Shown here in pieces: positions 12,593 to 38,307 of a stretch of DNA of 52,606 nt. The first letter of the stretch is position 1, and the number at the start of each line of letters is the position of its first letter. This DNA comes from Amoebidium appalachense (taxonomy: Eukaryota > Protista > Ichthyosporea), in the NCBI GenBank assembly GCA_963693365.1, contig CAVNZM010000019.1, positions 230,121 to 282,726 of the forward strand. The letters are read 5' to 3'. Under the pieces are notes generated by a model that did no database searches, was not told where the DNA came from, and saw only the letters and a program-made list of their open reading frames with translations. The translations under genes were made by a program, and so were the position numbers.

Positions 12593-12655
<63 letters not shown>

Positions 12656-12946: not shown

Positions 12947-13020
<74 letters not shown>

Positions 13021-13108
13021 TGACGGTGTGGGGAGGGGGGGGAGGAGGAGATCCTGTTTGCACATGTACCTTCACTACCCCACAAGGAAGAAGCACACAG
13101 ATGTGATG
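11571..13108 (+). repeat. Repeat family R1: seven ~95-bp cores plus one degenerate copy, spaced by variable (TG)n/poly-G
   Basis: Core GGGAGCGCAGATCCTTGCTTTGCACACTTTGTACCGTCTGTAATCACTTACCTGCTCACTCAAGTGAATTCGAAGCACACAGATGTGATGG. Confidence 0.9.
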
Positions 13109-13135
13109 GGGGGAGGGGGCGAGGCAGATAGTTTG

Positions 13136-13215
<80 letters not shown>

Positions 13216-14429: not shown

Positions 14430-14464
14430 CTCCTCGTTATCACAGTCGTTACACAACGGATGAT

Positions 14465-16497: not shown

Positions 16498-16511
16498 CCC
16501 CAAAAAACCAC

Positions 16512-16543
<32 letters not shown>

Positions 16544-16614
16544 CACCCCCACCCCCCCACACACACACACACCGTGACACCCCCCCCCCCACACACACAC
16601 ACACACCGTGACAC

Positions 16615-17240
16615 ACACACACAGACAAACACACACACAAGTCACTGCCACGGTGAGCATGTAACAGTCGATACTATACGGTACATACTGTGCCTGAACA
16701 GCCCTTCCTCCTCCCACTCCTACCCCTCCCCCCCCCCCACACACACACCCTCCCCCCCCCCACACACACACACCCCCACCCCCCCCCCCCCCACACACAC
16801 ACACACCGTGACACCCCCCCCCACAGACACACACACACACCGTGACACACACACACACACAAACACACACACAAGTCACTGCCACGGTGAGCATGTAACA
16901 GTCGATACTATACGGTACATACTGTGCCTGAACAGCCCTTCCTCCTCCCCACTCCTACCCCTCCCCCCCCCACACACACACCCTCCCCCCCCCACACACA
17001 CACACCCTCACCCCCCACCCCCCCCCCCCACACACACACACCGTGACACCCCCCCCCCACACACACACACACACCGTGACACACACACACACACAAACAC
17101 ACACACAAGTCACTGCCACGGTGAGCATGTAACAGTCGATACTATACGGTACATACTGTGCCTGAACAGCCCTTCCTCCTCCCACTCCTACCCCCTCCCC
17201 CCCCCCACACACACACACCGAACAGCCCTTCCTCCTCCCC
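16615..17240 (+). repeat. Repeat family R3: three ~90-bp cores spaced by (CA)n/poly-C
   Basis: Core ACAAGTCACTGCCACGGTGAGCATGTAACAGTCGATACTATACGGTACATACTGTGCCTGAACAGCCCTTCC. Confidence 0.9.
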
Positions 17241-17265
17241 CCCCCCCCCATCCCCCACACCGTCA

Positions 17266-17324
<59 letters not shown>

Positions 17325-17344
17325 CACACACACACACACACACA

Positions 17345-17468
17345 CACCATCACATCTGTGTGCTTCGAATTCACTTGAGTGAGAGGTAAGTGATTACAGA
17401 CGGTACAAAGTGTGCAAAGCAAGGATCTGCGCTCCCTCCCTCCCCCCCCCCCATCCCCCACACCGTCA

Positions 17469-17521
<53 letters not shown>

Positions 17522-17669
17522 TCACACACACACACACACACACACCATCACATCTGTGTGCTTCGAATTCACTTGAGTGAGCAGGTAAGTGATTACAGAC
17601 GGTACAAAGTGTGCAAAGCAAGGATCTGCGCTCCCTCCCTCCCCCCCCCCCCCATCCCCCACACCGTCA

Positions 17670-17719
<50 letters not shown>

Positions 17720-17866
17720 GTGACACACACACGCACACACACACCATCACATCTGTGTGCTTCGAATTCACTTGAGTGAGCAGGTAAGTGATTACAGACG
17801 GTACAAAGTGTGCAAAGCAAGGATCTGCGCTCCCTCCCTCCCCCCCCCCCATCCCCCACACCGTCA

Positions 17867-17943
<77 letters not shown>

Positions 17944-18004
17944 ATCACATCTGATGCGCTATTATCGAATTGCACTTGAGTTAGCAGGTAGTGGTTACAG
18001 ACGG
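17345..18004 (-). repeat. Repeat family R1, inverted array (three cores plus a degenerate copy) at the left of copy B
   Basis: Reverse complement of the 11571-13108 cores. Confidence 0.9.
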
Positions 18005-18202
18005 TGTGTGAGCACCGTAAAGCGGTGCTTCATTGGGTGTAGAAGGAATGCAGCATTCGATTGGAGAGGAGAATGGCATGCAGCATATGTGTAAAAAGTG
18101 CACGTAGCGCCGAACAAGCCGAACAAATCGACCCAATCATCTGGGACCAGTATTCTCTTGCAATCCTCTCCAATCGAATGCTGGATTCCATTCCTCTCCT
18201 CC

Positions 18203-18255
18203 TACAACCAATGAAGCGTACAACCAATGAAGCGCCGGACGCCTCCCTATATAAA
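18203..18255 (+). promoter_or_regulatory. Tandem CCAAT boxes plus TATA box of the AntA/MSV199-like gene
   Basis: (ACAACCAATGAAGCG)x2 then TATATAAA at 18248, ~95 nt before the ATG; same at ~35045-35096 and inverted in A. Confidence 0.65.
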
Positions 18256-18345
18256 CACAGCAAGCGCTGGACAGCCAGCACCTTTACGGTACACACACAG
18301 CACTCAACCCCCAAACCCAAAGCCCCAACTCTTCCACCAGCGACC

Positions 18346-20281
18346 ATGGCTTCCACCTACGCCATCTACGAGCGCCTCAACATTGCCGGTGCCAAAGAGG
18401 CCGGCTTCCCTCCCATCTCTCCCGAGCTCGAGCGCCTGCTGGGCACCGTGGGCGACGACGTGGTGGTCAAGGTGCTGCGCTTCCTCAACCCGTTCCTGCT
18501 GGACAGCGCCGAGACCATCTCCGGGCGTGCTGTGTTCCGCTTGCTGGGGTACCGGAGCTACAATGACTTCGTGAGGGTCATGTTCAAGGGGCAGAATGGT
18601 GTTCCTGCTGCGATGCCTGCCCACAAATACCGGGTGGTTGAGAAGGTGAGTGTGTTGAGGTATTCGTTGAGTTTTGCTATATCGCATTCCCCGGGCTCTA
18701 TGGAAACGGAGATTCCAAACCTCAGTAGACAGCCAACAACGTCTGCGTAATAGCTGGGTGGCGCCTCTCCAAAGAGATGGATTCTTCTTGTGTGCTTTGG
18801 AAATTCCAACTCAAACGTACACCATAATTTGTCCGAGTGCACCTTTCCAACCACGAACATGTTTCACTTCGATTACATCTTTTTATCGGTTAAGAGATCA
18901 ATCTCCCCACGGGCTATTCGTTGCTTTTTCCCGCCCTCTCGTTGTTGCAGCTGCATGCGAACAATTTCTTCTGCTTGTTTGCCTGGTGGTCTGAAGCTTT
19001 TTACAATTGTTTCAAATGCTTGGCGTGTAAACTTGTAGGAAATTCTTGGCCGCCCCCCAGTTGATGGCATGGGTTTGCTTCGGTAATCCTTGTTGTTCTT
19101 CCATTTATTTCGGATGATTGCTCTTTTTATGGCTTCCTGCGCTCTTCCCCATGTAAGGTTTAGCTCGCTCATCAATCTTTCGCTGTTATAGGGGTAATCC
19201 ATCGTTGTAGGGCTCCATATATGACCCAAAAAAAAAGACTCGCGGCTAACCTTCTTGTCCACAGAGCATCGGTGGTCGTACTGAACAAGATCACCTTTTG
19301 AAACCAGAGGGGTTACGGATGGCCTCTATCATGGGCTCGGATGCGAACTCGGGCTGGCTGGCTCGCGATTTCCGTGGGCTGGCCCTTGACATCGAAAAGG
19401 GGTTTGCACGTCTCATGCACAACTTCAAGGCGACGGGAAGTACACGGCCTTCTTGGCAACTCTTGCCGCTGCAGAGGCGGAAGCTGTCGCTGCTGCCGCG
19501 AGGCTCGTGCGCTGCTCCCTTGAGGACCGGCGCCGAGCCAAGCAGGCAGCCGAGACCGCACTGGACGAGGCGCTCGCCCCCCTGGTCGCCGCCCTCGCAC
19601 GCGTCAAGCTGGGGCCACTCATCGAGCCGCATGCCTCAACCGACGCCAAGTACATTGACAACACCGACTTCCGGCGCCTGGTTCGGGCATTCATCTCCAT
19701 GTGTGGTGGGGACGTTGGAAGGCCACGAAGTGCGCTGTGCCGGCAAGTACACAAGTATGGTGATGGCCGTTACCGGTGTGTGCGTGCTGTTCCCGTCCAA
19801 TGTGTTTTCCGGGTTGCGGCGGCAACCAACGGGCTGCAGCGCGCCATCAAGGAGCGCATCCGCCTGTGGACCGGACACGTGCTGACCTGCTGGATGGACA
19901 TGACCACGCAGCAGCTCTACACGTTTATGAACAACTTTGTGGGCTGGTACGTCGGCTTCTGCAGGGGACAGCTGTTCCAGTCCACCCTTGACAAGGCGGA
20001 CAAGGTGGTGGTTCCCACAGACATCGGGGTGCCAATTGAGATGGCCGTCTGGCTGGGCGCCATCCAGGACAAGTTCCCCAACATCCGCCCCCTGGACCTC
20101 GGGCGCACTGTCAGCCTCGACACGCCCCCTGGCCGATCGCGGCGAGCAGATCAAGGGGCAGACACAGCTCGACGTGTATGTGCAGCGCGGGCGGCTGGGG
20201 CGTCGCCGCAAGGTCGCGCACCTGCAGAAGCCCAAGGGGCCCGTTGATGTTGTTGTGATTGCGGACAGTGATAGTGAGTGA
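18346..20281 (+). pseudogene. Two-exon AntA/MSV199-like gene, copy B (intron 18646-19264), exon 2 broken by several frameshifts
   Basis: Same splice sites as A; exon 2 is split across ORFs 19298, 19453 and 19937. Could be real decay or consensus error. Confidence 0.6.
18584..19202 (-). pseudogene. Intron-nested AntA-like + PD-(D/E)XK nuclease, copy B, frameshifted
   Basis: Near-identical to 10124..10735 but split into ORFs 18873..19262 and 18558..18860 by small indels. Confidence 0.6.
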
Positions 20282-20380
20282 TATGAGAATTGTGTAGCGC
20301 TGGTCGATTGGGGGTGTTAGTGTATAGCGCTAGAGTTGTGTGTAGCGTAGCTTTCGTAGCTTCGTAGTAGTGTAGCTTTC

Positions 20381-20429
<49 letters not shown>

Positions 20430-20647
20430 TGTGTAGCGCTGGTGGCTCGGTTGTGTCAGGCTGTGTTGCGTTAGTGTAACCCTGACCAAAAACCAAAAGT
20501 GATGACGTAACTCGGTGCCACCAGACCCAATAAAAAAAGTCCCGCTCCCGGAGCGGAACTTTTGTGATTGGACAGACTCGCATCAATGATGTCATGGCTA
20601 ACCCTGACCAAAAACCAAAAGTGATGACGCAACTCGGTCACCCACCC

Positions 20648-20887
<240 letters not shown>

Positions 20888-21753
20888 CTTACCGATGATA
20901 GCGCTATTATAAATTAGAATTGAGTTGTGTGTGTGTGTGTGCTTGCTCGGAATTGTGTCAGGCTGTGCAGCGCTAGAGCGCAGCGCCAGCGCGCCTGCCG
21001 GCGGGTGTTCTTTGTTATCAGAGTAGATATGTCATCATATGCGTTGACGTCATTTTGACGTCATCCGCTTACTTAAATAGACTTGGTTGGCGCTGGGGAT
21101 GATGGGCCATCTGCATCATGTAGTTCTGCGCTGTACGTGGGAATAACCTGTGCAACATAAGCTCTCAATTGTAATTACAATAAATGCAAAAAATCTTGAA
21201 TTGTATTTTTCATGGTGGGTGCATAAGCGTGAGACTTTCCATCATGGGTTCATCAATATGCAAATTGTTCTCTTGGGGCTGAGACTTCATCCAATCGGTT
21301 TTCGGTAGAATTTGATTGGCCTAACCTGGATTTCCAAATGTTCTCTTGGAAGCCGTTATTTGGTGGGGGGATAGATGCGTAGATGCGTAAAACACGATTT
21401 AATTCAAGCAAAATCGCGAGAGAGAAAATGGATTGCTGCGCCAAAGAGTTCATGGTATATTTGTAAACATTTAGGCAGTCAAGGGCTCCGAAATGGCTTC
21501 AGTCCTTTTGCACTCACTCCCAATACTGAGATCACCAAAAAGCCAATCAAGCGTTACTGCCAATCGCGTGCACTCCAGGAACAAATGCAGCATCCAATTG
21601 TATCACCGGTTGTTTCGATTGGTCATTCAATAACCAATAAAAAAACATGTTCTCAATTGGCTCACCAGGTGGCGCAGCCAGCTATTTAAGTCAACATCTC
21701 GTAGGCCTCTGCCATCATTCTACAACCACAGACACTCAGGTGACACATACAAA

Positions 21754-22542
21754 ATGTACATGTCACAGACACTGCACACCGCGATGGAAATCGGCGCTCC
21801 TGGCGCTGCGCCTGTCTCCCAGCCGGCCGTATTCAACACCTTCACGTTTCCACCCACCCCACAACCCGACCTGGACATCATACAGAGTACCGACTTCATT
21901 CCGCTGACGTCCGACGATTTTGCTGCTTTTGACAACCAACTAGGTGACGGCTCCATGCTCCATGCGCCCACCCCGACGACGGCTAAGAGCCACGGCCAGC
22001 ACCACGTCTTCGACTTCGACATGGTCTGCGGCGAGACAATCCCCCCCTCTCCGGCGCGTCCTGTTCCCGCACGTCTGCATCTGCAAGCGGTCTCCTCTCA
22101 CGCCCCCACGCTGCCACCCACCACAACCACGCCAGCAACAACATGGTTTGGCCGGCTCAGGTCTGCCGAGAACCAGGATTCCGATACGAGACAATGGAAG
22201 CGCTCGCGCGCTAACATCTCAATGACCAAAAAGCCACCTGGTGAAATCAAAGCCCTCGCCACTGCTGGTGATTGGAGGCGCCATCTTGCACCCCTGCCTG
22301 TTTCACAGATGTTGGGCGAGGCGCTCGACAGACTTAGCCCGTTGTGCCTTGTACCGTTCATCAGCTGCACGCTCCCTTTTGCAGCTAGCAAAGAGCAGCT
22401 CTCCTACCTCGACGCTGGTAGCATCTGTGCGCTTCTCGGCTTCAGGGACATCGATGAGATACGCGACCGTCTCGATCAGGCCAAAATCGCAAACGCCCGT
22501 GATGTACCAGGCACAGAAGCGGTAGGAGGCCCCCCCCCCCCC

Positions 22543-22579
<37 letters not shown>

Positions 22580-22646
22580 GGCTTCCACACACACACACAC
22601 ACACACACACAAGGCTTCCACACACACACACACACACACAAGGCTT

Positions 22647-22720
<74 letters not shown>

Positions 22721-23685
22721 GGCTTCCACACACACACACACACACACACACACAATTTTTGAAGCTTCCACCGACACTTTATCGACACCCCTACTAAATG
22801 GTGGATCCGGGCACCATAGTGGTCGTGGCTACGGTGGCGTTTTGCGTGGGCATGTTCTTTCTCAGTGTCCTTGACTATCTCTTCCCCGTGTTCTCGGAAC
22901 CGATTAAGGGGGACCCACCCCCGCCATACTCAATCCATGCTGATACTTGGTGATTCCTACAGGGTTCCCCGCACTACTACAAGGAGGGCAACTTCATGCT
23001 GGTCTCGCCCGCTGCGTTTCTTCACCTGACCACCCAGGTCTTGTACGAGTCCCCCCTGGCCCTCGATTTTCTGGGATGGTTTAACAGCGCCCGCAACAAG
23101 GAGCTGCACTTGCACGAAACCCGGCTCTATGAGAAGACCCGCGGCGCGCCCCCTTCCACCACCCCTCTGGATGCCACCCGCCACATTCGCGCTACCTTTG
23201 TCGGTTTCCTGGTGGCCACACTCAGCTCGACATCCGTGCTTGACGTCCACAGCCTGGTGACCATCCTTGAAAAGGTGGCCAATGTGCAAGTCACTTCACG
23301 CTTCAAGACCCGCAACATCTGCGCCCCGCACGCCGAGGCGCTGGTTTTCAAGGTGCTTGCCCAGCGCATCAATATAGACACGGGCGTTTCGATAGCGTCT
23401 GCGCTCGACATCAACACGTTGCACCTCTACACGTTTCTCTCGCGCGCCCTTGAGGCTCTGGATGTTGACGTACCCCATCCACACGGCGTCCCAGCCAGCA
23501 GCACCCACAAGGACCCCCAGCTGCGCGACCTGAGGAAGCTGGGTCGCTCCCTCGAGAAGGACTTTGCCGGCATACGCCAGTTGCCCCTGGAGCCCAAGTC
23601 CTTCTTCTATGCCATGCCGGAGCGCCAGGACACCCCGGCCGGACACGAAGTGTGCGCGTGCTTCAGGATGGATCGGAGTCTTTAG
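21754..23685 (+). CDS. Two-exon Bro-N-like protein, copy B (exons 21754-22521 and 22963-23685)
   Basis: GCG|GTAGGA donor and TTCCTACAG|GGT acceptor in frame; different N-terminus and promoter from A and C. Confidence 0.7.
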
Positions 23686-23974
23686 GTTGGGCGGACATGT
23701 ACGGATGGATGCGTCGCACGAGTCCTGTGCACACGGGGCAGCGCCGTGCAAGCTTGCACGATTTGGAGTTGTTAGGGCACTTGTCCTGGGATACATACTT
23801 TTTTTTAGCTGGCTTGAGTGCGCTTGTACTGGTGGGTTTGGGCTTTGCTCCGTTTAGCTTCGGCATCGTAAGCGCAGCCGGTTTGGGCGCGCTTGTACTG
23901 GTGGGTTTGGGCTTTGCTCCGTTTAGCTTCGGCATAGTAAGCGCAGCCGGTTTGTGATTTTGTGTTTGCGCCAT
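23663..23974 (-). CDS. Small basic protein with Cys4 cluster, copy B
   Basis: Homologue of 5089..5400; intact; 3' end overlaps the Bro-N-like gene by 23 nt. Confidence 0.55.
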   Translation of the reverse strand: MAQTQNHKPAALTMPKLNGAKPKPTSTSAPKPAALTMPKLNGAKPKPTSTSALKPAKKKYVSQDKCPNNSKSCKLARRCPVCTGLVRRIHPYMSAQPKDSDPS

Positions 23975-24445
23975 GGCCTCTTCTGTTGGGATTTCAGTCT
24001 TTATATACACCTACATAATCATCAACAATAGCCGCTAAACATTGCGCGTTGTCTCGCGTGTGAGCTTTTGCAACCTTGTTTGTATATTGACAGGCCCAAT
24101 GCCTGCTTATCAAATGTGTCATAATCTTATCATGTCACGTGATATAAAACTGACCAATCAGATCATTTGGCGTCTGATCACCACCCTTTGATCGCTGTAG
24201 AGGAAGGGGGGTTTATCGATCTTGTCTGGATAAATCGCATTCCGCGGCGCGGATTGCCATGCAAATTGTGTTTCATTAATAAACCCCACTGTTTTTGTCG
24301 CTTGCGGGAGATTTTCATGACGCGATGGCATTTTTAATTGAAGATTTGTGACAGGCAAACAGTGTCACATGGACATCAACTCTCACCTTTTCGTTTTTTT
24401 CACCTTTCGCTCACAGCGATTTCTCTTCACCCACCCTTGCAAAAC

Positions 24446-25624
24446 ATGAACTCCCCACTCCCCCACCCACTCCCCCCTCCCCTCCCTTCACCCCCAAAGC
24501 CCGTTGAAGGGTGTGAATGCACTCGTTGCACAGACCTTCGCGTCTGTGACGGCTCCTCCGACGCGTGTGCCGTCTGCGGTTACCACAACACCCCACATCT
24601 CAAGACGAAGGCAAAACACTTCCCCGCCATCACCCATTTTGTTTGTGGCTGCGACCACTGCCTGACCCTTGCGGCAACAAGTGTTCCCCGTCTGTGTAGT
24701 TCGTGCTTCACCTCGCTGTCGACTCACTCTTCTCCCATGCCCGGCCTCCCCGGCTGCTGCGACACATGCCGTAGCGGCACCCACTGTGCCTTCCGCATCG
24801 CCCGTCGCACCCACAACTATATCAACACACAGCGTCGGCGGGCTTGGAATGCCGTCTACTCCCTGCTGACCACCATACCCGTCCCATGCACGTGCATACC
24901 CGACATCCCAGACCCCCTCCCCACCGCCCACCGCATGGCCCCGCACAACCCTGCATGTGCCATGTGGCACGTTGGCTTCCCCGCTCCCGTGCCCGAATGT
25001 GCCTCCCCCGTCTGTGCATGCACACACTACCGCAATGCGGAGGCCTTTCTCGCTCACATGTGTGCGGGTCGCCTGCGCCACCTTGTCACTGACATGTACA
25101 CCCCCGCCCTCGAATACTGCCCCTTGTGCAGCTGCCGCCGCCGCCCAGCTTCGCCCGGCACACCCCAGGCCTACGTGGCCGCCGACCTCCCCCTCCGCTT
25201 CCATTCCTGTCCTTGTCCACACTGCGTGCACGTCTTTGCACGCCCTGCCACCGTGCTCGTGTGTGCCGACTGCCACACACTCGTCCTGCAGCATCAGCAT
25301 GGTGTGGACGGCTGCGCGAGGAGGCTTGTTGGCCGTAGACGACAGCTGCGACCGGGTTTGGCCCCCCGAAGACTTGTTCCTGCCCCACAAGCCCACACAA
25401 ACACCCATTTCTCTCCCCAACCCCCACCATGCACATCTCTTCCACCAAGCCCATACCCATCCCCAAGCCCGCTCACACCGCCTGTTAAAGATACTGTATG
25501 CAAGAATTTAGAAGTTGAAGATCCCAACTCCCCCCAGGGTGAGTGGTTGTGGATGCTTTTCCCCTCTGGGTGGCAAAATGTGTGGGTGCCGGCCACCCCG
25601 GGCACCCCGCAAAAAAAAACGTGA
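24446..25624 (+). CDS. Cys-rich (many CxxC) protein with Pro-rich ends, copy B
   Basis: Intact ORF with CECTRC, CAVC, CGCDHC, CSSC, CDTC, CPLCSC, CPCPHC, CADC; probable metal binding. Confidence 0.7.
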   Translation: MNSPLPHPLPPPLPSPPKPVEGCECTRCTDLRVCDGSSDACAVCGYHNTPHLKTKAKHFPAITHFVCGCDHCLTLAATSVPRLCSSCFTSLSTHSSPMPGLPGCCDTCRSGTHCAFRIARRTHNYINTQRRRAWNAVYSLLTTIPVPCTCIPDIPDPLPTAHRMAPHNPACAMWHVGFPAPVPECASPVCACTHYRNAEAFLAHMCAGRLRHLVTDMYTPALEYCPLCSCRRRPASPGTPQAYVAADLPLRFHSCPCPHCVHVFARPATVLVCADCHTLVLQHQHGVDGCARRLVGRRRQLRPGLAPRRLVPAPQAHTNTHFSPQPPPCTSLPPSPYPSPSPLTPPVKDTVCKNLEVEDPNSPQGEWLWMLFPSGWQNVWVPATPGTPQKKT

Positions 25625-25665
25625 AGACTTGGCATCTGTACATCTGTACACACACACACACCACA

Positions 25666-25696
<31 letters not shown>

Positions 25697-26074
25697 CACA
25701 CCACACACATGCACACACACACACACACACACACCACACACGCATACGCACATGCATGTTTCAGATACGTCCAAGTGTGGTTATGTATTGACTTTTGTGT
25801 TTATTCACTCTTGCTGGCGTTAAGTCTCGCTTACATGTTAGGGTTCAGATACATAGATGATGTTTGCACCAAATCGTGCTTATGAGAAGACATCGTAAGA
25901 AACAAACGATGGGATATTTGCGCTGGTTTGCACATTTGCACATGTATGGGTTGGGGCATATCATAGCATATCACATTGTGGTACTTGTACACACTGCCCT
26001 GTCTATATTTGTCTATGGGTATAGCATTCCTCTCTCCCATACACACTCACCCACCCAGCAAACACCCCACACCA

Positions 26075-27091
26075 CTATCCTGGTCGAATGCACACCCACA
26101 CCTCATTCACCGCAACGGTGTTTTCTCCATTGCCTCCTATGACTACACGCAAAGGTTTCTCGTTGTCCTTAAATTGCAGTTGCCACAGCTGCTTGGAGGT
26201 GGCCTCGTCGGATGCGATGTGTATTTTAGAACCCTTGTTTGTTACTTGCACTATGACATGCTTCACGTTGTAGTAGATGTATGGGGGGTGCGGAGATCGA
26301 TCGACAGACACCCAGATCTCGCACTGCTCTCCCGCTGTCTCCGACTGGGGGCTGCTTGTGGCTACCACCTGCTCCGTGAACGCCACCTGGTCGTCGACGT
26401 CGACGGACCTGTGGTCCTCGGACACGAGCGGCTCGCGTGCTGCTTCGCACACCTGGCTGCTTGGGGGCGCTGCTGCTTCGCACACCTGGCTGCTTGGGGG
26501 CGCTGCTGCTTTCTCCTTATCCGCTGCCTCTGTGGTCTCTTCCGTGTCCAAATCCGGAAAATAGAGTGGTCGCCAGGGCGCATTGGGTTCGGGGTTGACT
26601 GCCACTGGTAGGCGCAGGGACGGGACTTTTTTGGAGGCCCCCATCTTGTTTTGGCGGAAGTGGCGCCCACATCTTTTTGGATTCGCCCCTGCCTTCCAAT
26701 AAAATGCATCCCGTTGCTTTTGTACCACGTCGCTGGCCGCGGCACCCGAAGTCTTGCACGGGAGAATCCTGCGTAGCGGAATCTTGCCCGGTGGTGGTGG
26801 CCATGTTGTCTGCAACGGGTACACTCGCACGTCCTTGCTGCACAGGGGCGGTGCGTGCACAGCTGCAAAAGGGGGTTGGGAAGGCTGTGCATGCACGCAG
26901 TCGTCTTTGGGCGGTATTGCGCGTGCAGGTTTTGTGTTGGCGGGGAACGAGTGCATGTTGGCTGGGGGCGAGTGCATGTCGAATTCGCCGAAGACGGGAA
27001 CGCCCATGAGCGCTGCCTCGCTGGCCGGTGTTGTCGCTTGGAAGAGCTTGTCGCGCAGGCGCCACAGGTTAACGTTTGGCTTGTGGTTCAT
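26075..27091 (-). CDS. Hypothetical 338-aa protein, copy B
   Basis: Homologue of 1817..2866 with two instead of three 11-aa repeats. Confidence 0.7.
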   Translation of the reverse strand: MNHKPNVNLWRLRDKLFQATTPASEAALMGVPVFGEFDMHSPPANMHSFPANTKPARAIPPKDDCVHAQPSQPPFAAVHAPPLCSKDVRVYPLQTTWPPPPGKIPLRRILPCKTSGAAASDVVQKQRDAFYWKAGANPKRCGRHFRQNKMGASKKVPSLRLPVAVNPEPNAPWRPLYFPDLDTEETTEAADKEKAAAPPSSQVCEAAAPPSSQVCEAAREPLVSEDHRSVDVDDQVAFTEQVVATSSPQSETAGEQCEIWVSVDRSPHPPYIYYNVKHVIVQVTNKGSKIHIASDEATSKQLWQLQFKDNEKPLRVVIGGNGENTVAVNEVWVCIRPG

Positions 27092-27830
27092 AGCTGCAGG
27101 TTTGCAAGACTGGCAGCATCCGAAGCAGTGATGGTGTTATATGGGTCCTATAGCCAATTTGATTGGTCCAGTGGCTTTGCCAGGGTGCGAAAGAGTCCTT
27201 CGGCGCAATAAAATGCAACCGAAATGAAACGAAATGATTAAGCTAGAAGAAGTAAATTTTGAAAGCCACAAGAATGGGAGGAACTCCGTCATTGATTTAA
27301 CGAAACAGACATCATATTGTATATAAACTGGGGTTTTTGTTTCAGGGATCCCAATTCGGTTATAACCCTGACCGCGAGTCGCTTTTCCGAACTCTGAGTA
27401 GAAACTAAAACAACAACCTGTTCAATAGGAAAACAATGGCAAAAATGTTCTTATAAATCGAGTTTAAATATTTCTGTTTTGTTTTCAAATTAATATTTCG
27501 GTTTTGTTTTCAAATTGGCGTTCACATCACATCAATACTGTATCATAACCAGTCAATTTTAAAATAACACAATTGCTGTATCTGAGCCAATCAGACGCTG
27601 CATGCCTTGGCTACAGATCCTTCGGTCATCTTCCACAGGAATACAAGACCCTCTATCCGATTGGACATCACGCTGATTGGTCGGCAACTCCAAACGTCTG
27701 ATTGGTCAACGCGTCTGATTGGTCAACGCGTCTGATTGGTCGGCGCGCTATTGGTGGGGTGGCTCTCAGGGAGGGGTATACCACAGCACAGCTTTCAAAC
27801 TTCACTCTCCATACGAGCGCGTTCATCACA

Positions 27831-29339
27831 ATGGGCGCCGATCAGTCCACCCTTTCTCCCAGCGCGCAACAGCTGGTCTTGGGCAACCACTACCTGCTTC
27901 TGTACATCTGCTCCTTCCTGGATGCACGCTCACGTCGCAGCATTGCGCTCACCTGCCGAGCGCTTCGCCACGTACACGAGGCAGAGCTGGCGCGCCCGAA
28001 CAGCCACATGCGCGTCGACCTGTCCAAGGGTCCGAAGTCAATCGAGTTTGCCACGCGCGTCCGTGCCACCCACGTCCTTGCCACCACTGCTGACTACAAG
28101 CGCCTTGCCGAGCTTCCGCCCATGCGCTTCGTTCTCCACATGGTTCTTGATGAGTACCGGGACCTGGCCAACCACCATGCAAAGGCTGCCCATAACCACC
28201 GCTACACCAGCACGGAGCCCATCTACCCAGACCTGTTTCCCAACCTCAAGGTCGCAGAGGTCAACTCCTTCAAGTGCCGCACCCCCCTTGTCGCCCCCTT
28301 CGCCTTGCTGGGCCGCGCTATCCAGAACCTGACGAGTCTGACCCTTGCCTTCTCTGCCACTCCCAGGCCCACACCTGGTGTAGTCATGGATCTTGCTGCG
28401 CTCGAAAACCTGGCCCATCTGCACGTCCACCTGTGCACGCGTGTGAACCCCTCTAACATCTACGCCATCCCCAGCACGGCGCTGCATGTGCCTGCGGGCC
28501 TTGTGAAACTGCATCTGGACTACCGCTTCCGCTCCATGTGCGGCCACCAGTACGGCTACGGCAGCGGCGGCTCCGCTCCCGGTATCCACAACATCCACAA
28601 CATCGAGTCCTGCGTCAACATGCGCAATGTGCACGTGTGCGTCTTTGGCATGGTGGTGTTCGACACCATCAATCGCGCCCACCGTGTCGAGCTGCTGTGC
28701 TCACAGGCCCGCGGCACGCTGCGCGGGTGCACCAGCGTCCAGATCGGCAAGGAGGTGCGCGACATCGAGATCACCACCACCGGGGACAGCGCCAGTGACT
28801 ACCCAGGCAACCGGCTCCTTGTGGCCGGCGCCCGCGAGTTCGAGTGCTTCCATCCCGCCCACAACTGGGCGCTGCAGGACGTCCATGTGCTGGAGATCAT
28901 GCACGTGCCCCACAGCCCGCGCGCGCTGGCGGCCATCGCGCAGGCCGTCAACCTGCGCTCGCTGACCGTCACGGCGCCCATGTTCAGCGACAGGGAGCTC
29001 GTCTACCACATGCCCCCGACCATCGAGATGGTGAACTTCAGGCACGTGCGCCTGGTCGTGCTCGCAGACCCCAGCGGGCTCATCCGCCCGCTTGTGTTTT
29101 CCAGCGACTGCGACCTGGTCCTCTACAACCACTGGCTCCTGCGTGCGGCCGGGTTCCTGATGGACTCGAAGTGGGACCGGTTCATGACACGGCTGCTCCA
29201 CATCACGCAGTGCGACATGCCGTGGGCGCTCGGGCGGAAGCTGAAGTACATGGGCGACAAGTCGTACAGGCACCTGCCGTTCCCCGAGGGGGGGGGGGGG
29301 TGTAGGGGGGGGGGGGTGTTTAGAGCCCTAGACACTTAG
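27831..29339 (+). CDS. F-box protein with MGxxxS N-terminus and LRR-like body, copy B
   Basis: LLLYICSFLDARSRRSIALTCRALR fits the F-box pattern; LxxL-type segments follow; the stop is displaced by poly-G length relative to copy C. Confidence 0.8.
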   Translation: MGADQSTLSPSAQQLVLGNHYLLLYICSFLDARSRRSIALTCRALRHVHEAELARPNSHMRVDLSKGPKSIEFATRVRATHVLATTADYKRLAELPPMRFVLHMVLDEYRDLANHHAKAAHNHRYTSTEPIYPDLFPNLKVAEVNSFKCRTPLVAPFALLGRAIQNLTSLTLAFSATPRPTPGVVMDLAALENLAHLHVHLCTRVNPSNIYAIPSTALHVPAGLVKLHLDYRFRSMCGHQYGYGSGGSAPGIHNIHNIESCVNMRNVHVCVFGMVVFDTINRAHRVELLCSQARGTLRGCTSVQIGKEVRDIEITTTGDSASDYPGNRLLVAGAREFECFHPAHNWALQDVHVLEIMHVPHSPRALAAIAQAVNLRSLTVTAPMFSDRELVYHMPPTIEMVNFRHVRLVVLADPSGLIRPLVFSSDCDLVLYNHWLLRAAGFLMDSKWDRFMTRLLHITQCDMPWALGRKLKYMGDKSYRHLPFPEGGGGCRGGGVFRALDT

Positions 29340-29952
29340 TCATGTGATTGTAGTCGAATCTGTGGGCCTTGATGGTCACCTTGTTTGCACTTAGTTTCTT
29401 TGTACTTACTGGTTTCATCATGAATATGTGCCTCAGAACTTTGCCAAATACACATAGGTTCATGTGAACCTCCATGTCTGACCCTTGTCGTCTCACCCAT
29501 TCGGAGTACAGTGCATAGAGAGATGATGTTTTTACGGGGGATCCCGGGGGGAACTTGTGCCTGTTGTTTTCGTCTTTCAAAAATTCAATAAAAAACTGCT
29601 TGACCAGCTCGTATCCCTTGCTGTGTCGCAGATTGGAGTCTTTTTTCCACGGCCTTGTTATCCACTCGCCTATCCTATCGTCAATAAGTATGCGCACCCC
29701 CCGTGACTTCCCGTCGTCCAAGGCAGACTTGTATGCACGCCACGGGCAGTGGCCGTACAAATAAAGTGTTGGGCGATGGTTGGGGTATGTGCTCTGTCTT
29801 GCAAGGATTGTTTGTAGGCCGTCTACGAATCGGGTGATGTGGACCACCAGTATCACGTCGGTTCCCGTCAGCACGCAGTCCTCCCCGAGCTTTGTGGTTT
29901 CCGGTTGGTATAAAAGGCGTGTTACGATTTCAGACCCATCACTTTCAGTCAT
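29320..29952 (-). CDS. 210-aa protein with C-terminal D5-C-like winged helix, copy B
   Basis: SSLYALYSEWVRRQG...MNLCVFGKVLRHIF parallels SSGLFQLYQDWHRLN...PSLRSFGIAIKKIL in the adjacent helicase; TATAAAAG upstream. Confidence 0.65.
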   Translation of the reverse strand: MTESDGSEIVTRLLYQPETTKLGEDCVLTGTDVILVVHITRFVDGLQTILARQSTYPNHRPTLYLYGHCPWRAYKSALDDGKSRGVRILIDDRIGEWITRPWKKDSNLRHSKGYELVKQFFIEFLKDENNRHKFPPGSPVKTSSLYALYSEWVRRQGSDMEVHMNLCVFGKVLRHIFMMKPVSTKKLSANKVTIKAHRFDYNHMTKCLGL

Positions 29953-30048
29953 CTTAGAGTAGTGAACAAAAATATTGGAGGTGGGCCTTTTATAGGTTTT
30001 GGGTGGGTGGGGGTGGGTCATCGATTATTTTCTGTGCTACAAGGAAGG

Positions 30049-31560
30049 ATGCAGGCGGCCATGACATTGTTTTCCGGTGGTGTGTCGACACAGGAGCTCG
30101 ACAAGGTAGTTGCACGGACCCTCCGTCTGTTTGATGCATTTGAGAACACTGAGATGAGGGGTCTTCCGTTCATGCCTGCATCCTGTGACCTCCGGCTGTG
30201 GAAGAAATCGGAGGTGGAAGAGTTTATTGGATCACATGTTGCGCATATTCAAGGGACAAAACTGTATGTGATGAAGGCATTTTGCCCCATACGTCTCAGC
30301 TATGCTTTCAAGTTGGTCAGCAAGGAGGAGCTGTCCATTTCACTCTCTGGATACTCCTTCCCCCAACCACCCGAGAAGGTGGGAAAGGGAACAAAGGCCC
30401 TTCCGCCCATCAACGGCACCGATGTTCTTCGTTCATCCGCCATTCCCAAGTACATGGGCATACTGTTCGACCCCTCTGACCCTGACCCTCGCACCGGTGC
30501 AAAGGCGGCCGCCACGTCTGGGATGTACCGTATGTACAACCCGTTCCGGGGGCTGCCCATTGTGTTCAACCCACAGTACCCCCTCAATTTTGATTTGACC
30601 GGTCCATTCAACAGACATGGGTTGGAGATTCTGTGCAACGGGCGTGCGGAGGAGTATGAATACCTGCGGATGTGGGTTGCTCACATGTTCCAGCATCCCA
30701 AGAGCAAGCCCGGCACCGCCCTGCTTTTTCAGTCTGAGCAGGGAGCGGGGAAGAACGTGTGGTGGCAGGCACTCATGGATATACTGAGCCCGGAGTACTG
30801 TGCTTATATCATCCACAAGGAACACATCGCAGGCAAGTTTAATCAGCACCTGGCAAACAAACTTCTGGTTGTGTGCGACGAGGTGGTCTGGGGTGGTTCT
30901 CACGAACTCAACAACATCATGAAGGCCCGCATCACACAGTCAACCATGATGCTGGAAAAGAAAGGGTGTGATGCGGTAAACATTGACTGCTACGAGAGGT
31001 ACGTCATGCTGTCGAACGAAGAGTGGCCTGTCCGGATCGAGCAGTCATGCCGCAGATACGCCTGCTTTAGGGCAAGCTCCGCCCGCATTGGGGACCACCA
31101 GTACTTTGATTTCCTGGTTTCCCATCTCAAGCAGCCTGCCGTTTTGGAGGCCATTTATCACGAGTTCATGGCAGTTCAGAACGTCCCTGGGACTATGCCA
31201 CGCCCACTTGAGAACGACGTGAAGCAGACACTGAGAGGCATAAGCCGATGTGACGAGGCACAGTTCCTGCGAGACCTCTTGGACCATCAGAATGGATGTG
31301 AGAATATGACCTTCATTCAGGACAACGCATATGTCACATCAAGTGGCCTCTTCCAGTTGTACCAAGATTGGCACCGTCTCAATGCAAGGGACCGCAACAT
31401 GCCCAGCCTCAGGAGTTTCGGGATCGCCATTAAGAAGATACTCGGGGAGAGGAAGTGTGTGCGCAGTGTACATACCACACGGTGGGACAGCCATCCACCT
31501 ATGGCATCTGAAAACGTCTCCTGCTACTGTCTCAATAGGTCTGCTGTATTCAAACACTAG
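30049..31560 (+). CDS. D5-like/DUF5906-type SF3 helicase with C-terminal winged helix (~503 aa), copy B
   Basis: Walker A SEQGAGKN, Walker B LLVVCDE, KARIT, motif C VMLSN and RRY arginine finger; no primase domain recognised. Confidence 0.9.
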   Translation: MQAAMTLFSGGVSTQELDKVVARTLRLFDAFENTEMRGLPFMPASCDLRLWKKSEVEEFIGSHVAHIQGTKLYVMKAFCPIRLSYAFKLVSKEELSISLSGYSFPQPPEKVGKGTKALPPINGTDVLRSSAIPKYMGILFDPSDPDPRTGAKAAATSGMYRMYNPFRGLPIVFNPQYPLNFDLTGPFNRHGLEILCNGRAEEYEYLRMWVAHMFQHPKSKPGTALLFQSEQGAGKNVWWQALMDILSPEYCAYIIHKEHIAGKFNQHLANKLLVVCDEVVWGGSHELNNIMKARITQSTMMLEKKGCDAVNIDCYERYVMLSNEEWPVRIEQSCRRYACFRASSARIGDHQYFDFLVSHLKQPAVLEAIYHEFMAVQNVPGTMPRPLENDVKQTLRGISRCDEAQFLRDLLDHQNGCENMTFIQDNAYVTSSGLFQLYQDWHRLNARDRNMPSLRSFGIAIKKILGERKCVRSVHTTRWDSHPPMASENVSCYCLNRSAVFKH

Positions 31561-32112
31561 GCGGTTCTGACTATTATACGCATATATATTCAGAATGTAT
31601 TCGGAATTCTGATTGGCTGGTTGGGATCACGTGACCCACTGAGCCAATCATATTCTTTCTTTTCTTTTTTGTATTCAGATAGTCAGAATATACAGTAAAA
31701 TAGAGGTCGCTGGGGGGTGAAAAAGGGTCGAATACTTGCATTTGATTGGTGGATATAAATAGATTTCGTAGAATGGGGAGGTCTTGGATTATCTGTATAT
31801 TCTGCCTAAACGAATACGAACAATTTACTCACCGGAAATTCTGAAATCGTGAATTTCCGGAATCGCAGCGTCCCCTGCTTTAGAACATTTGGCATTCTTT
31901 TACAAAATTTCGTGTTTAAACAAACACAAAGTCCTGTATATTGTGGTTTGAGAATTCCTCCTCCCTCCCTCCCCCCACTTCCTTATCAACGACACAACCG
32001 TGCCGTGCACGACCGACAAATAGTGTGTGTTTGTGTATCAGTAAGTAGTGTGTGTTTGTGTGTGTGTGTTTGTGTGTGTGTGTGGGTGTGTGTATGACAC
32101 GTGTGTGTGTGT

Positions 32113-32143
<31 letters not shown>

Positions 32144-32160
32144 GGGGGATGGGGGGGGGG

Positions 32161-32913
<753 letters not shown>

Positions 32914-33125: not shown

Positions 33126-33562
33126 ACCCTTTAATCTCATATTTATCTAATAGCGCTACGATTGGTAAGTGTGATGCCACTCACCGACTATCCAATCAAA
33201 TCACTGGAATGACTTCATCGGCGCTTTCATTATTCAAACTGTCGGGATGCGCGCGATTTGATTGGTGAGTCGAAGAGTTGCTACAGAAACCGACTTTCCA
33301 TACCCCACACACCACACACACATACATCTATATATATCATACACATATACATACAAGCGTACATATTTTTATACATATGTATACTTATATACACATAATA
33401 TATATATTTCTTTGTATTCTAATTTTTATTTGTATACACTGACCTTTTGATATTCTTCTAACCTACTTCCAAAAGGATCATGTAGTGATACTAGTTCAAT
33501 GTTCATTTATTATAAATAAATATTTACAAAAGTGAAGTTCATATGTCTTTTATTTTAGTATA

Positions 33563-33609
<47 letters not shown>

Positions 33610-34357
33610 GATACCTACACATATACAAGAATGATACTGTAACATACGTATACAATGTAGGTGTATGGTGTATGGTGTGTGGTGTGTGGGGTATGGAAAG
33701 TCGGTTTCTGTAGCAACTCTTCGACTCACCAATCAAATCGCGCGCATCCCGACAGTTTGAATAATGAAAGCGCCACTGACCTCATTGCAGTGATTTGATT
33801 GGATAGTCGGTGAGTGGCATCACACTTGAATATGAGATTAAAGGGTTTATATATCAAAAAAAGCAAAAAACGCGAAAGCTTTGACCAATGCAATCGCTGT
33901 ATTAATATATAAACCCTTTAATCTCATATTTATCTAATAGCGCTATGATTGGTAAGTGTGATGCCACTCACCGACTATCCAATCAAATCACTGCAATGAG
34001 GTCAGTGGCGCTTTCATTATTCAAACTGTCGGGATGCGCGCGATTTGATTGGTGAGTTGAAGAGTTGCTACAGAAACCGACTTTCCATACCCCACACACC
34101 ACACACACATACATCTATATATATCATACACATATACATACAAGCATACATATTTTTATACATATGTATACTTATATACACATAATATATATATATATAT
34201 ATTTCTTTGTATTCTAATTTTTATTTGTATACACTGACCTTTTGATATTCTTCTAACCTACTTCCAAAAGGATCATGTAGTGATACTAGTTCAATGTTCA
34301 TTTATTATAAATAAATATTTACAAAAGTGAAGTTCATATGTCTTTTATTTTAGTATA

Positions 34358-34398
<41 letters not shown>

Positions 34399-34634
34399 TA
34401 TATTTATATAGATACCTACACATATACAAGAATGATACTGTAACATACGTATACATGTAGGTGTATGGTGTATGGTGTGTGGTGTGTGGGGTATGGAAAG
34501 TCGGTTTCTGTAGCAACTCTTCAACTCACCAATCAAATCGCGCGCATCCCGACAGTTTGAATAATGAAAGCGCCACTGACCTCATTGCAGTGATTTGATT
34601 GGATAGTCGGTGAGTGGCATCACACTTACCAATG
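33126..34634. repeat. Duplicated AT-rich palindromic unit: four ~160-bp arms in alternating orientation
   Basis: Arm ATTGGTAAGTGTGATGCCACTCACC...TTTCCATACCCCACACACC is forward at ~33160 and ~33948 and reverse ending at ~33827 and ~34633; (TA)n-rich spacers. Confidence 0.9.
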
Positions 34635-34691: not shown

Positions 34692-34805
<114 letters not shown>

Positions 34806-35186
34806 CTTACCGATGATAGCGCTATTATCAATTAGAATTGAAAAGTTGGCACTAGGGGTTGTGACGGGTGTGTGAGCACCGTAAAGCAGCGCTTCATTGG
34901 GGGGGGTGGAATGCAGCATTCGATTGGTCAGGGCATATGTGTAAAAAGTGCACGTAGCGCCGAACAAATCGACCCAATCATCTGGGACCAGTATTCTCTT
35001 GCAATCCTCTCCAATCGAATGCTGGATTCCATTCCTCTCCTCCTACAACCAATGAAGCGTACAACCAATGAAGCGCCGGACGCCTCCCTATATAAACACA
35101 GCAAGCGCTGGACAGCCAGCACCTTTACGGTACACACACAGCACTCAACCCCCAAACCCAAAGCCCCAACTCTTCCACCAGCGACC

Positions 35187-37376
35187 ATGGCTTCCACCTA
35201 TGCCATCTACGAGCGCCTCAACATTGCCGGTGCCAAAGAGGCCGGCTTCCCTCCCATCTCCCCCGAGCTCGAGCGCCTGCTGGGCACCGTGGGCGACGAC
35301 GTGGTGGTCAAGGTGCTGCGCTTCCTCGACCCGTTCCTGTATGACTGCAAGGAGACCATCTCCGGGCGCGCCGTGTTCCGCCTGCTGGGATACGGCAACT
35401 ACAACGAGTTTGTGAGAGCCATGTTCAAGGGGCGCAATGGGTCGCGTGGTTTTGTCCCTGTCGGAAACTACCGTGTTGTCGAGATGGAGGTATGAACATT
35501 CCCTCTGACGCAAGTGCAACCGTGGCTAGCATGTCGAGCTTGCTTTTAGATGAGCGTGTCAAATTTCTTGCTATGCTAACTGTATCACAACAACCTGGTT
35601 CAACAGACACAATTACACCGTGTTCCATGATTGACTCTATAACAAACAAGTAGAACGAGTTGGGCGCTCTACCAAACAAGTGGATTCGTTTGCGATGATC
35701 GGAATAGTACTTTCCATAGACAAGGATCTCTCCAAGCGAATGTTTCCATGAGCGCACATGCTTCACTTCGATTACATCACTATCTGTTAACAAGTCTATT
35801 TCCCCAGCAGGCACTGTTCTTTTCCCGCCTCCTTCTCTTTTCTGTAGATTTGCACAGATCTTCTCCTCTGGCTGGTTCTTTCCGAGTGTCTGTTCGAGCC
35901 TTTTAGCCAGTTTGCTGTAAGCACGATCAGTTAGAAAAAACGATTTGCCTGGCATGCCCCTGCTGCCTGTGCGTACTCTTGTAACTCTGTAATCTACATT
36001 CTCTACCCAGCCCAGTCGTCTTATGGTCCGTATTATATTCTCAGTCATTCTATTTCTTGAGAGCCCATACTTGCGCGCTATGGTATCCGCGCTCATTTGG
36101 ATACTCACCATACTCTTTGTATAGAAAAAATAGACGACTCTATTTGCTGCTAAAACTCTGACGTCAAAATGACGTGTCAGCTACAAGAGCTGAGACGTCA
36201 TCACTTTTCAGCTTTGCAGCTGAAAAGTTTTGATTGGTGCTGGGGGTATCAGGATGATGTCAACACTTTTCAGCATTTTGGCTGAAAAGTTTCGATTGGC
36301 TCCTGTGGCATCTGATGACGTCATCACTTTTGACATTCTCAACTCAAAACTCTAACGTTAACCAACCATGCTCTCATTTTACACAGAGTACCATAGGACG
36401 TCCTGGTATGGACCACCTACTGACTGCCGATGGCTTCCTTGTTGCTGCTCTGGCTTCTCCAGCCCTGGTCGGCAACACTGTTCGTGTGTGGGTCCTTGGT
36501 GTCAAGAACGCCTTTGCCCGCATGGCTGATACCAACAAGGATGAAGCTCTCTCCGCCCTGCGCGCCACCCTTGCTGCGGCCGAGGCCCGTGCTGCTGAGA
36601 CTGCCACCGAGCGCGACCAGGCCATCAACGACAAGGAGGCCGCGGAGGCCGCCCAGGCCGAGGCACTCGCCACCCTCGCTGCCGCTCTCGCCCGCGTGAA
36701 GCTCGAACCACTCACCCTCCCGACCCGCATGCCTCTCACAACCGGCGGCACGTACACGGACAACCATAAGTTCAAGCGCCTGACGCGCGCGTTCGCGTAT
36801 GTGTGCGTGGACACGCTGTACGGCGAAGGCGTGCGCTGCGCTAGCACGTACACGGGCATGATCATGGCCACCACGGGCGTGTGCTTTGTGTTCCCGTCGG
36901 GGGAGATTTCCAACATCATCGCCACCACCGGGCTGCAGAAGGCCATGAAGGAGCGCATCCGGCTGTGGACCGGCGAGGAGCCCAAGTACTCGACCGACAT
37001 GACCACGCAGCAGCTGTACACCTTTGTCTACAACTACACGCGCTGGTACGTCGAGTACTGCAAGGCGCCGGTGCTGCGCCAGTCGACCATCAACAACGCG
37101 GACACGGGCGCTGCCGAGTACGAGGTGCACGTCGAGCTGGCGTCGTGGCTGGAGGCCATCCAGGACAAGTTCCCCGACATCGAGCCGCTGGAGCTCGGGC
37201 GCACCGTCAGCCTCAACGACCCCCTTGTCGAGCGCGGCGAGCAGCTCAAGGGGCAGACCCAGCTGGACGTGTATGTGCAGCGCGGGCGGCTGGGGCGGAA
37301 GCGCAAGGTCGCCCGCCTGCAGAAGCCCGAGGGCCCCGTTGATGTTGTGGTGATTGCGGACAGTGATAGTGAGTGA
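35187..37376 (+). CDS. Two-exon AntA/MSV199-like protein, copy C, divergent allele (exons 35187-35489 and 36387-37376, ~430 aa)
   Basis: GAG|GTATGA donor and CATTTTACACAG|AGT acceptor, phase 0; spliced NYRVVEME|STIGRPGMDHLLTADGFLVAAL. Confidence 0.75.
35425..36111 (-). CDS. Intron-nested AntA-like + PD-(D/E)XK nuclease-like protein (228 aa), copy C paralogue
   Basis: WVENVDYRVTRVRTGSRGMPGKSFFLT and GEIDLLTDSDVIEVKHVRSWKHSLGEILVY...RIHLF. Confidence 0.8.
   Translation of the reverse strand: MVSIQMSADTIARKYGLSRNRMTENIIRTIRRLGWVENVDYRVTRVRTGSRGMPGKSFFLTDRAYSKLAKRLEQTLGKNQPEEKICANLQKREGGGKRTVPAGEIDLLTDSDVIEVKHVRSWKHSLGEILVYGKYYSDHRKRIHLFGRAPNSFYLFVIESIMEHGVIVSVEPGCCDTVSIARNLTRSSKSKLDMLATVALASEGMFIPPSRQHGSFRQGQNHATHCAP
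35490..36386 (+). other. 897-nt GT-AG intron harbouring a divergent antisense nuclease ORF
   Basis: Equivalent position to the A/B intron; CTAAC upstream of the acceptor; sequence otherwise very different. Confidence 0.7.
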
Positions 37377-37447
37377 AGTGTGAGTTGTGTAGCGCTGGTC
37401 GATTGGGGGTGTTAGTGTATAAGAGTTGTGTAGCGCTTTCGACGGGA

Positions 37448-37491
<44 letters not shown>

Positions 37492-37531
37492 GTGTATAAG
37501 AGTTGTGTAGCGCTTTCGACGGGAGTGTGCG

Positions 37532-37566
<35 letters not shown>

Positions 37567-37654
37567 TAGTGCAAAGCGCTGGAGTTGTGTAGCGCCAGGC
37601 ACTTGGTGTTAGTGCATAGCGCTAGCGTTGTGTAGCGCCAGACACTTGGTGGTA

Positions 37655-37917
37655 GCGCATCAGTGTTTTTTTTTTTTCATACAAATAGAACGAGCAAACC
37701 GATCCGCCCGAACCACCTCTGGTGCTCTGTGTAAATGACGGAAAAATGATAATGTCCCCAGAGCCGATCAGAGAGTTCCAGGCATAGTGCAGGGATTTGA
37801 TCCAAGACTTAAGAATAAACTCTCGTTACTGTGAACCAATAACCAGATACAGATACAGTTGAACCTACCATCCTTTCCTACACCACAGCCCCCCCCCCCC
37901 CCCCACACACACACCCC

Positions 37918-37993
<76 letters not shown>

Positions 37994-38238
37994 GCATCAG
38001 TGTTTTTTTCATACAAATAGAACGAGCAAACCGATCCGCCCGAACCACCTCTGGTGCTCTGTGTAAATGACGGAAAAATGATAATGTCCCCAGAGCCGAT
38101 CAGAGAGTTCCAGGCATAGTGCAGGGATTTGATCCAAGACTTAAGAATAAACTCTCGTTAATGTGAACCAATAACCAGATACAGATACAGTTGAACCTAC
38201 CATCCTTTCCTACACCACAGCCCCCCCCCCCCCCCCAA

Positions 38239-38307
<69 letters not shown>

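Follow-up and report, generated by a model that had tools for sequence, protein, structure and literature searches.

A spliceosomal-type intron with an antisense gene for a predicted nuclease exists in two diverged types at one site of a repeated gene in Amoebidium appalachense

Results

The window, i.e. the whole analysed stretch of 52,606 nucleotides from Amoebidium appalachense, contains three related multi-gene units at 1-11484 (minus strand), 17868-31197 and 34693-49619 (plus strand). Each unit opens with the same two-exon gene, here called the host gene, in copies A, B and C respectively. The units also encode an F-box-like protein and D5/primase-type helicases, which match DUF5906 and phrog_1156, with (CA)n/(GT)n arrays between the genes. 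A C2H2 protein is also found among the neighbours, and the matches of the F-box-like and BAG-like neighbour proteins are both under the cut-off. No capsid, integrase or transposase was recognised among the neighbouring ORFs, and no HK97-type capsid, terminase or portal module was found in 15 ORFs with Pfam or in 12 each with PHROGs and NCBIfam, libraries that may miss such modules in a window that is itself a fragment. The repeat is likely a virus-derived or mobile element of the eukaryotic nucleus.

The helicase genes at 29914-31560, 48381-49640 and 49641-51254 form an arrangement in which a truncated-looking copy is directly followed by a ~70%-alike paralogue, and oppositely oriented ORFs with weak D5 winged-helix matches lie at 29320-30024 and 47735-48436 (minus). 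Between units 2 and 3, helicase identity is 97% as far as 31197/49619 and is lost beyond this point, which constitutes another mosaic junction. A multi-copy ORF without database match (39362-40549, 21634-22797 and 6241-7197, the last on the minus strand) extends into a (CA)n array and contains a motif that looks like BRO-N, and a single-copy ORF amid repeat arrays at 13680-14546 (minus) has a weak BAG-domain match (E 0.035). Tandem arrays with 140-340-nt units composed of (CA)n and a unique core are found between the gene units at 11400-13200, 16500-18000, 32000-32900, 37650-38640 and 15258-15504 (including satellite), and so is a 13-nt satellite in 19 copies; these arrays and the satellite are possible recombination hot spots. 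An AT-rich inverted repeat of ~700 nt (33126-33827 against 33913-34627, 96.5%; span 33126-34627) is situated right upstream of copy C.

Copy C lies on the plus strand with exon 1 at 35187-35489 (101 codons), a predicted GT-AG intron of 897 nt in phase 0 at 35490-36386 and exon 2 at 36387-37376 (329 codons and stop). Alignment of the copies places the exons of copy A, on the minus strand, at 10674-10973 (exon 1, 100 codons) and 9085-10059 (exon 2, 324 codons and stop), separated by a GT-AG intron of 614 nt, also in phase 0, at 10060-10673. Copy B (18346-20281, plus strand) is of the A type, with exon 1 at 18346-18645 and an intron of 619 nt at 18646-19264, and has frameshifting indels in both the nested ORF and exon 2 that represent either a decayed copy or an assembly error. 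The 5' leader common to all three copies (34960-35186 in front of copy C, plus strand) is 99-100% identical among them and has CCAAT-like boxes and TATATAAA at 35089-35096, motifs which suggest that it acts as a promoter.

The introns of A and C interrupt the same aligned codon boundary. The signals are GTATGA, branch-like CTAAC/TTAAC and ACAG in C, and GTGAGT, CTAAC and ACAG in A. When a profile built from 11 nuclease N-domains was applied, the proposed C splice scored best among the alternatives, but at only 1.2 bits. No Rfam family matched at gathering score in the window, where one chance match (E 0.94) was found around intron C. A group I or group II intron was rejected because of the GT-AG ends, the antisense ORF that nearly fills the intron (64 nt are free in A) and the missing Rfam match.

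The preliminary description of copy C had reported a 897-nt intron with a GTATGA donor against 614 nt in A, and the same position, phase and antisense orientation with a ~60-nt overlap with exon 1; all of this is confirmed, with an overlap of 62-65 nt. It had also called the C intron a different intron, which holds in the sense of strong divergence. The interiors of the A and C introns are homologous along the nuclease ORF (44-67% of nucleotides), and sequence specific to C amounts to only ~210 extra non-coding bases near the acceptor; thus the C intron is a diverged relative of the A intron and not an unrelated one.

The last stretch of the C intron (36112-36386) is non-coding and, read on the minus strand, precedes the start of the nuclease gene. 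It contains two TGACGTCA motifs (36159 and 36316), two antisense CCAAT boxes (36233 and 36295) and an internal duplication (36194-36270/36256-36331). This block, which varies in length among C-type copies, is a candidate promoter of the nuclease gene. A 38-nt stretch of it consisting of a TGACGTCA-like motif and its flank (36295-36332) recurs with 79% identity 3' of copy B at 20494-20531.

The gene nested in the C intron (35425-36111, minus strand) encodes 228 amino acids with a putative KilA/AntA/Rha-like N-terminal DNA-binding domain and a PD-(D/E)XK nuclease domain, and its counterpart in A (10124-10735, plus strand, 203 amino acids) has retained the catalytic residues. The end of the nested ORF overlaps exon 1 by 65 nt in C and 62 nt in A. 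The two ORFs are 42% identical with near-saturated third codon positions, and GC3 is 0.44 in the nested ORFs versus 0.78-0.82 in the host gene.

A phmmer search gave 1350 relatives of the nuclease at E<=0.001; the family is thus very common and its presence alone is no proof of homing. Seven residues (E82, G103, D106, E115, K117, W122 and G127) do not vary across an alignment of 68 proteins, which comprised A, C and 66 of the 150 matches listed. The resulting motif E..D..ExK is the pattern of PD-(D/E)XK nucleases. The structure model (pLDDT 83.8) has a restriction-endonuclease-like fold according to its top matches (Z 9.2 to 8.1), with PspGI as the best (Z 9.2, rmsd 5.9, 159 aligned) followed by AF1548 (Z 8.5), a Pyrococcus repair endonuclease (8.2) and Can2 (8.1). 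It also matches giant-virus KilA-N proteins (E 1e-8 to 3e-5), and Foldseek against PDB gave nothing at E<=0.001. Searches of Pfam, NCBIfam and PDB sequences give the nuclease no name, and PHROGs rendered a weak anti-repressor hint for the A nuclease only (E 0.097). The N-domains of the relatives are swappable, with KilA-N in 6 and Rha in 3 of the 68 proteins.

The A and C nucleases are each other's best match (138 bits versus <99 for others). They form a clade, with an SH-aLRT of 92 in a quickly built tree with 67 rows. A tree of the catalytic domain, for which the domain filter dropped four of 152 rows and left 148, supports the clade at 100/97, although its bootstrap had not settled. Since the nucleases are sisters, one nesting event suffices. 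Independent capture of two unrelated nucleases was rejected on the tree of 148 domains. In the nuclease core, 56, 71 and 30 of 96 sites are identical at codon positions 1, 2 and 3 (p=2e-8), and by this codon-position pattern the core is shown to be under long-term purifying selection. The N-domain (34, 36 and 27 of 75, p=0.15) has no such signal. The branch leading to the nuclease is 0.54 long for A versus 0.30 for C. The preliminary description considered the nested architecture old and selected, which is borne out by the core and by the sister nucleases; as for purifying selection on the nested ORF, also raised there, the codon positions give a signal in the core and none in the N-domain.

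In the host protein, the beginning of exon 2 resembles the tail of an AntA-like domain and is followed by a coiled coil and a helical domain of no named family. When the spliced N-domain was aligned to the AntA/KilA-N/Rha family over 55 columns, the score was 14.1 versus 14.2 for shuffled sequences, and neither exon 1 nor exon 2 alone had an AntA/KilA-N/Rha-type match in Pfam. Atlas features for exon 2 point to AntA/Rha/KilA-N at 0.81-0.83, as a lead only. An AntA/KilA-like N-domain split by the intron is a possible assignment at a non-significant score. The exon-2 model is of low confidence (pLDDT 51), with generic helices as the only structural matches. A search for exon 1 among longer proteins gave no match, which is weak evidence, and the outside homologues P0002-P0004 of the host protein are without the exon-1 part, which is only suggestive. 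Searches of viral_contigs with nuclease C, nuclease A, the exon-2 alignment and the helicase confirmed no related locus, and neither did searches of metagenome_contigs with the exon-2 alignment and with an exon-1 pattern of 24 bases.

The divergence between A and C is distributed around the intron. The host proteins are 100% identical in codons 1-46, 67% in codons 47-101, 45% in codons 102-260, 57% in codons 261-395 and 91% in codons 396-430, while pS in the same segments is 0.03, 0.40, 0.63, 0.36 and 0.13. A two-sided logistic fitted to the 251 codons with the same residue places the peak of synonymous differences at codon 100-105 (75-125 within 2 log-likelihood units), compared with an intron position of 101/102. 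Across exon 2, synonymous differences become fewer with distance from the intron (rho -0.39, p=2e-7, 171 codons). The 5' edge is abrupt, with differences beginning at 35328-35351, ~150 nt from the donor and after codon 46-47, whereas the 3' side fades gradually over ~900 nt without a block edge. Other genes of the units are 82-100% identical between units versus 45-74% over most of the host gene (300-nt windows), which makes the host gene the only deep coding trough of the repeated unit. Identity is also low in a non-coding spacer between units 2 and 3 (55-77%).

These results agree with the preliminary description in that C matches A/B in the promoter, in the first ~46 codons and in the last ~35 codons, that the nested ORF and most of exon 2 (45-57%) are strongly diverged, and that the divergence is centred on the intron. 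Its idea of a swapped block holds for the sharp 5' edge and fails for the gradual 3' side. The copies are of mosaic make-up. In the flank just upstream, A and C are identical (100%) and B differs (68%); inside, A and B agree (99%) and C is at ~50%, so that flanks and centre differ in history. A conversion tract, as proposed earlier, does not by itself separate active homing from passive homogenisation.

Comparison with the outside homologues P0002 and P0003, with the caveat that these were found with C as query, gave 30:11 and 36:7 sites where C rather than A matches the outsider in codons 102-330, and 7:8 and 5:4 in codons 331-430. Because of the counts in codons 102-330 and the longer nuclease branch of A, the A/B type looks, at the level of aligned sites, like the derived and faster-evolving one, or like one with a central block from a more distant relative. 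The earlier view of C as the odd, swapped copy is not upheld, because, relative to the outside homologues, most changes in codons 102-330 are on the side of A, and because both types occur, with variants, in independent sequencing runs. In the part of exon 2 at 36587-36746, compared with 19500-19640, B agrees with C against A at nine sites and in additional codons, and A has deletions of its own.

Contigs from public sequencing runs give further information about the introns. Two contigs of run X9 join 10059 to 10674 so that exactly 614 nt, with CT..AC ends, are skipped; one has 0 differences from A on both sides and a depth of 71, and the other has 20 differences on the listed piece and a depth of 8. 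The A intron is covered only partly in X9, at a depth of ~10, and the kind of this run is guessed to be DNA. No joint skipping the A intron was found in runs X1, X3 and X8, i.e. the exact joint occurs in one of the four runs aligned to A. The simpler and more probable reading of the joint is spliced RNA, because X3 with the same organism label is without it; the alternative is an empty DNA allele. Either way the joint supports the boundaries of the A intron. For the C intron, the four runs compared were X1, X3, X23 and X24; the last two, which are guessed to be RNA, gave no C match, and the contigs of X1 and X3 contain no skipping joint.

Public contigs match stretches of both the C and the A intron with 0 differences. 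An assembly chimera was rejected because independent runs contain both intron types. The C intron is represented by several variants among the contigs of X1 and X3, including some with shorter non-coding 3' blocks, and the A intron is covered at least partly by all four runs (X1, X3, X8 and X9). According to the loose ends of contigs, the common 5' end is also followed by other types of exon 1, at least two in number; contig depth was not taken as copy number. Among the 40 C-type variants listed out of 293, a biased subset scored singly with one change each time, 14 are non-synonymous and 5 synonymous in the nested ORF, without stops, compared with 5 and 10 in exon 2. The excess in the nested ORF may reflect either relaxed or diversifying selection.

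Discussion

The host gene of this repeat contains, at one site, two old and diverged types (A/B and C) of what is, on balance and with modest confidence, a shintron-like element with co-converted exon flanks. According to this explanation, the GT-AG intron of a multi-copy gene would work as a spliceosomal homing intron. The predicted PD-(D/E)XK nuclease, possibly transcribed from its own promoter in the 3' end of the intron, would cut other gene copies near the insertion site, and repair of the cut copies would bring in the intron together with adjoining exon DNA. The intron itself would be removed by the host spliceosome. Exon sequence near the intron might become tied to the intron type by co-conversion and by selection against being cut, while ordinary recombination between units might keep both ends of the gene, its promoter and the remaining genes near-identical. 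The divergence centred on the intron is likely the footprint expected of such self-spreading ("homing") introns. Against homing stand the exact intron-less joint for A in only one of four runs, where it is more simply spliced RNA, the lack of a joint skipping the C intron in the runs compared with C, and a host that is a multi-copy non-core gene, unlike most hosts of mirusvirus shintrons. The variant counts in the nested ORF and the low identity of the non-coding spacer between units 2 and 3 also count against it.

The same gradient is expected if the intron is a passive barrier, and the sequence evidence does not discriminate between the two explanations. The nuclease might have been captured once long ago and kept for another job of the element, for example DNA processing; after duplication of the gene, ectopic conversion would even out everything except the region of the heterologous introns, which conversion tracts could not cross. 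The units are mosaic throughout, a single nesting event is enough for the sister nucleases, and the A lineage seems the faster one both for the host block (36:7 and 30:11 sites) and for the nuclease (0.54 versus 0.30), so that block and nuclease appear to have been inherited together, as a congruent history predicts. Nevertheless, a barrier gives by itself no reason why the sole deep trough coincides with the nuclease-bearing intron, and it leaves both the shintron-typical layout and the origin of 50% divergence between neighbours that are otherwise 82-100% alike unaccounted for. It is regarded as rather improbable, though as the most likely of the rival explanations.

Two further explanations are less likely. 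In a special case of homing, the nuclease of one type would attack gene copies that contain the intron of the other type, and vice versa. Exon sequence beside the intron would then change to evade cleavage, and the DNA-binding domains would change in pursuit. The N-domain of the nuclease is indeed far more diverged than the core (17-38% versus 60-76% per 25 codons), exon amino-acid divergence peaks directly 3' of the intron (20-48%), and cleavage of intron-plus alleles has a precedent in I-HmuI and I-HmuII of phages SPO1 and SP82 (PMC3428280). However, dN/dS of the host gene is below 1 in the diverged parts (0.35-0.66, NG86) and variable N-domains are common in modular nucleases anyway, which leaves this competition doubtful to a high degree. 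The broader claim that two rival homing spliceosomal introns contest one site in a single eukaryotic genome, in an arms race that drove the flanking exons 50% apart while the remainder of the repeat stayed uniform, is unlikely; if true, it would be a nuclear counterpart of the intron competition of phages SPO1 and SP82, in a non-mirusvirus element. Hardly probable at all is a cognate toxin-antidote pair in which the host protein neutralises the nested nuclease and matched pairs co-diverge. The host gene and the nested gene are inseparable and both apparently faster in the A lineage, and an AntA/KilA-like domain is perhaps, on weak evidence, present in both proteins, but the divergence predicted for such a pair would be at a protein interface, which a smooth gradient of synonymous changes around the intron does not fit.

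The proposal of shintrons, i.e. spliceosomal homing introns, dates from 2025 and was based on mirusvirus genomes from metagenomes. That report (PMC12768974) lists 334 nested endonucleases of the HNH, GIY-YIG, VSR and PD-(D/E)XK classes, of which 15 are PD-(D/E)XK, with 64% of the shintrons in morphogenesis genes. It was the sole relevant paper found in literature on spliceosomal homing or homing introns since 2023. The present introns share with the shintrons described there a GT-AG intron of 0.6-0.9 kb that is filled by an antisense endonuclease gene, here PD-(D/E)XK, and spliceosomal signals of the form GT...CTAAC...YAG in both A and C without a group I/II signature. The coordinates of the nested genes often enter the flanking exon in mirusviruses as well (PMC12768974). 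In the first of the nine parts of that paper's supplementary file 2 (56 rows), the nested gene is antisense in 52 of the 52 rows with a nested-gene id. The 5 PD-(D/E)XK rows of the file include 4 with an id, and all 4 are antisense. Within these rows, orientation and exon overlap are thus features of the shintron class and not peculiarities of the present locus.

There are also differences. At the present locus the intron interrupts a non-core gene that occurs in several copies within a repeat cluster containing eukaryote-type microsatellites, and the scan of ORFs found no morphogenesis gene of mirusviruses. The nuclease has 203-228 amino acids and a KilA/AntA-like N-domain, compared with 345-563 amino acids for the mirusvirus PD-(D/E)XK enzymes in morphogenesis genes, all of them nested in MCP (5 rows, PMC12768974). 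A likeness is that, according to the legend of Extended Data Figure 5 in PMC12768974, MCP genes can differ in the intron that they contain at a given site. At the present locus two types occupy one site in one window and the exon gradient is measurable. Cleavage and homing are a proposal for the mirusvirus shintrons too.

The DNA polymerase group I introns of SPO1 and SP82, with I-HmuI and I-HmuII, likewise have diverged nucleases at one insertion site (PMC3428280). Phage homing introns such as the T4 td intron cause co-conversion of the flanking exons with a side bias (PMC2988022), and side-biased co-conversion and marker exclusion are features of the SPO1/SP82 and T4 td introns (PMC3428280, PMC2988022 and PMC11620839) that the present locus would share. 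In the phage systems the introns belong to the self-splicing group I and contain HNH or GIY-YIG genes in sense orientation, unlike the spliceosomal signals and antisense PD-(D/E)XK genes found here. The same two-domain build and catalytic motif are found in giant-virus proteins of KilA-N type with a nuclease (Megavirus L7Y5M1, Heterosigma akashiwo virus A0A1C9C549 and FirrV-1 A34) and in related small nucleases of metagenomes; here the gene is nested in an intron. The tandem clusters of repeated genes of up to ~50 kb known as 'Giant repeats' of an ichthyosporean genome, which are intron-poor (PMC11244446), resemble the present repeat in layout only, and the available parts of PMC11244446 and bioRxiv 10.64898/2026.07.28.741200 contain no match to this type of element.

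No description of two intron types at one site within one genome was found in the literature searched, and the footprint of two types at one site is what this locus adds to the shintron class. PMC12768974 calls for cultures in which the shintron mechanism can be tested. The present locus offers two intact, small and selected nucleases, one defined site, a base-exact junction for one of the types and an exon gradient as predicted by homing. Target specificity and intron-versus-intron competition thereby become directly testable.
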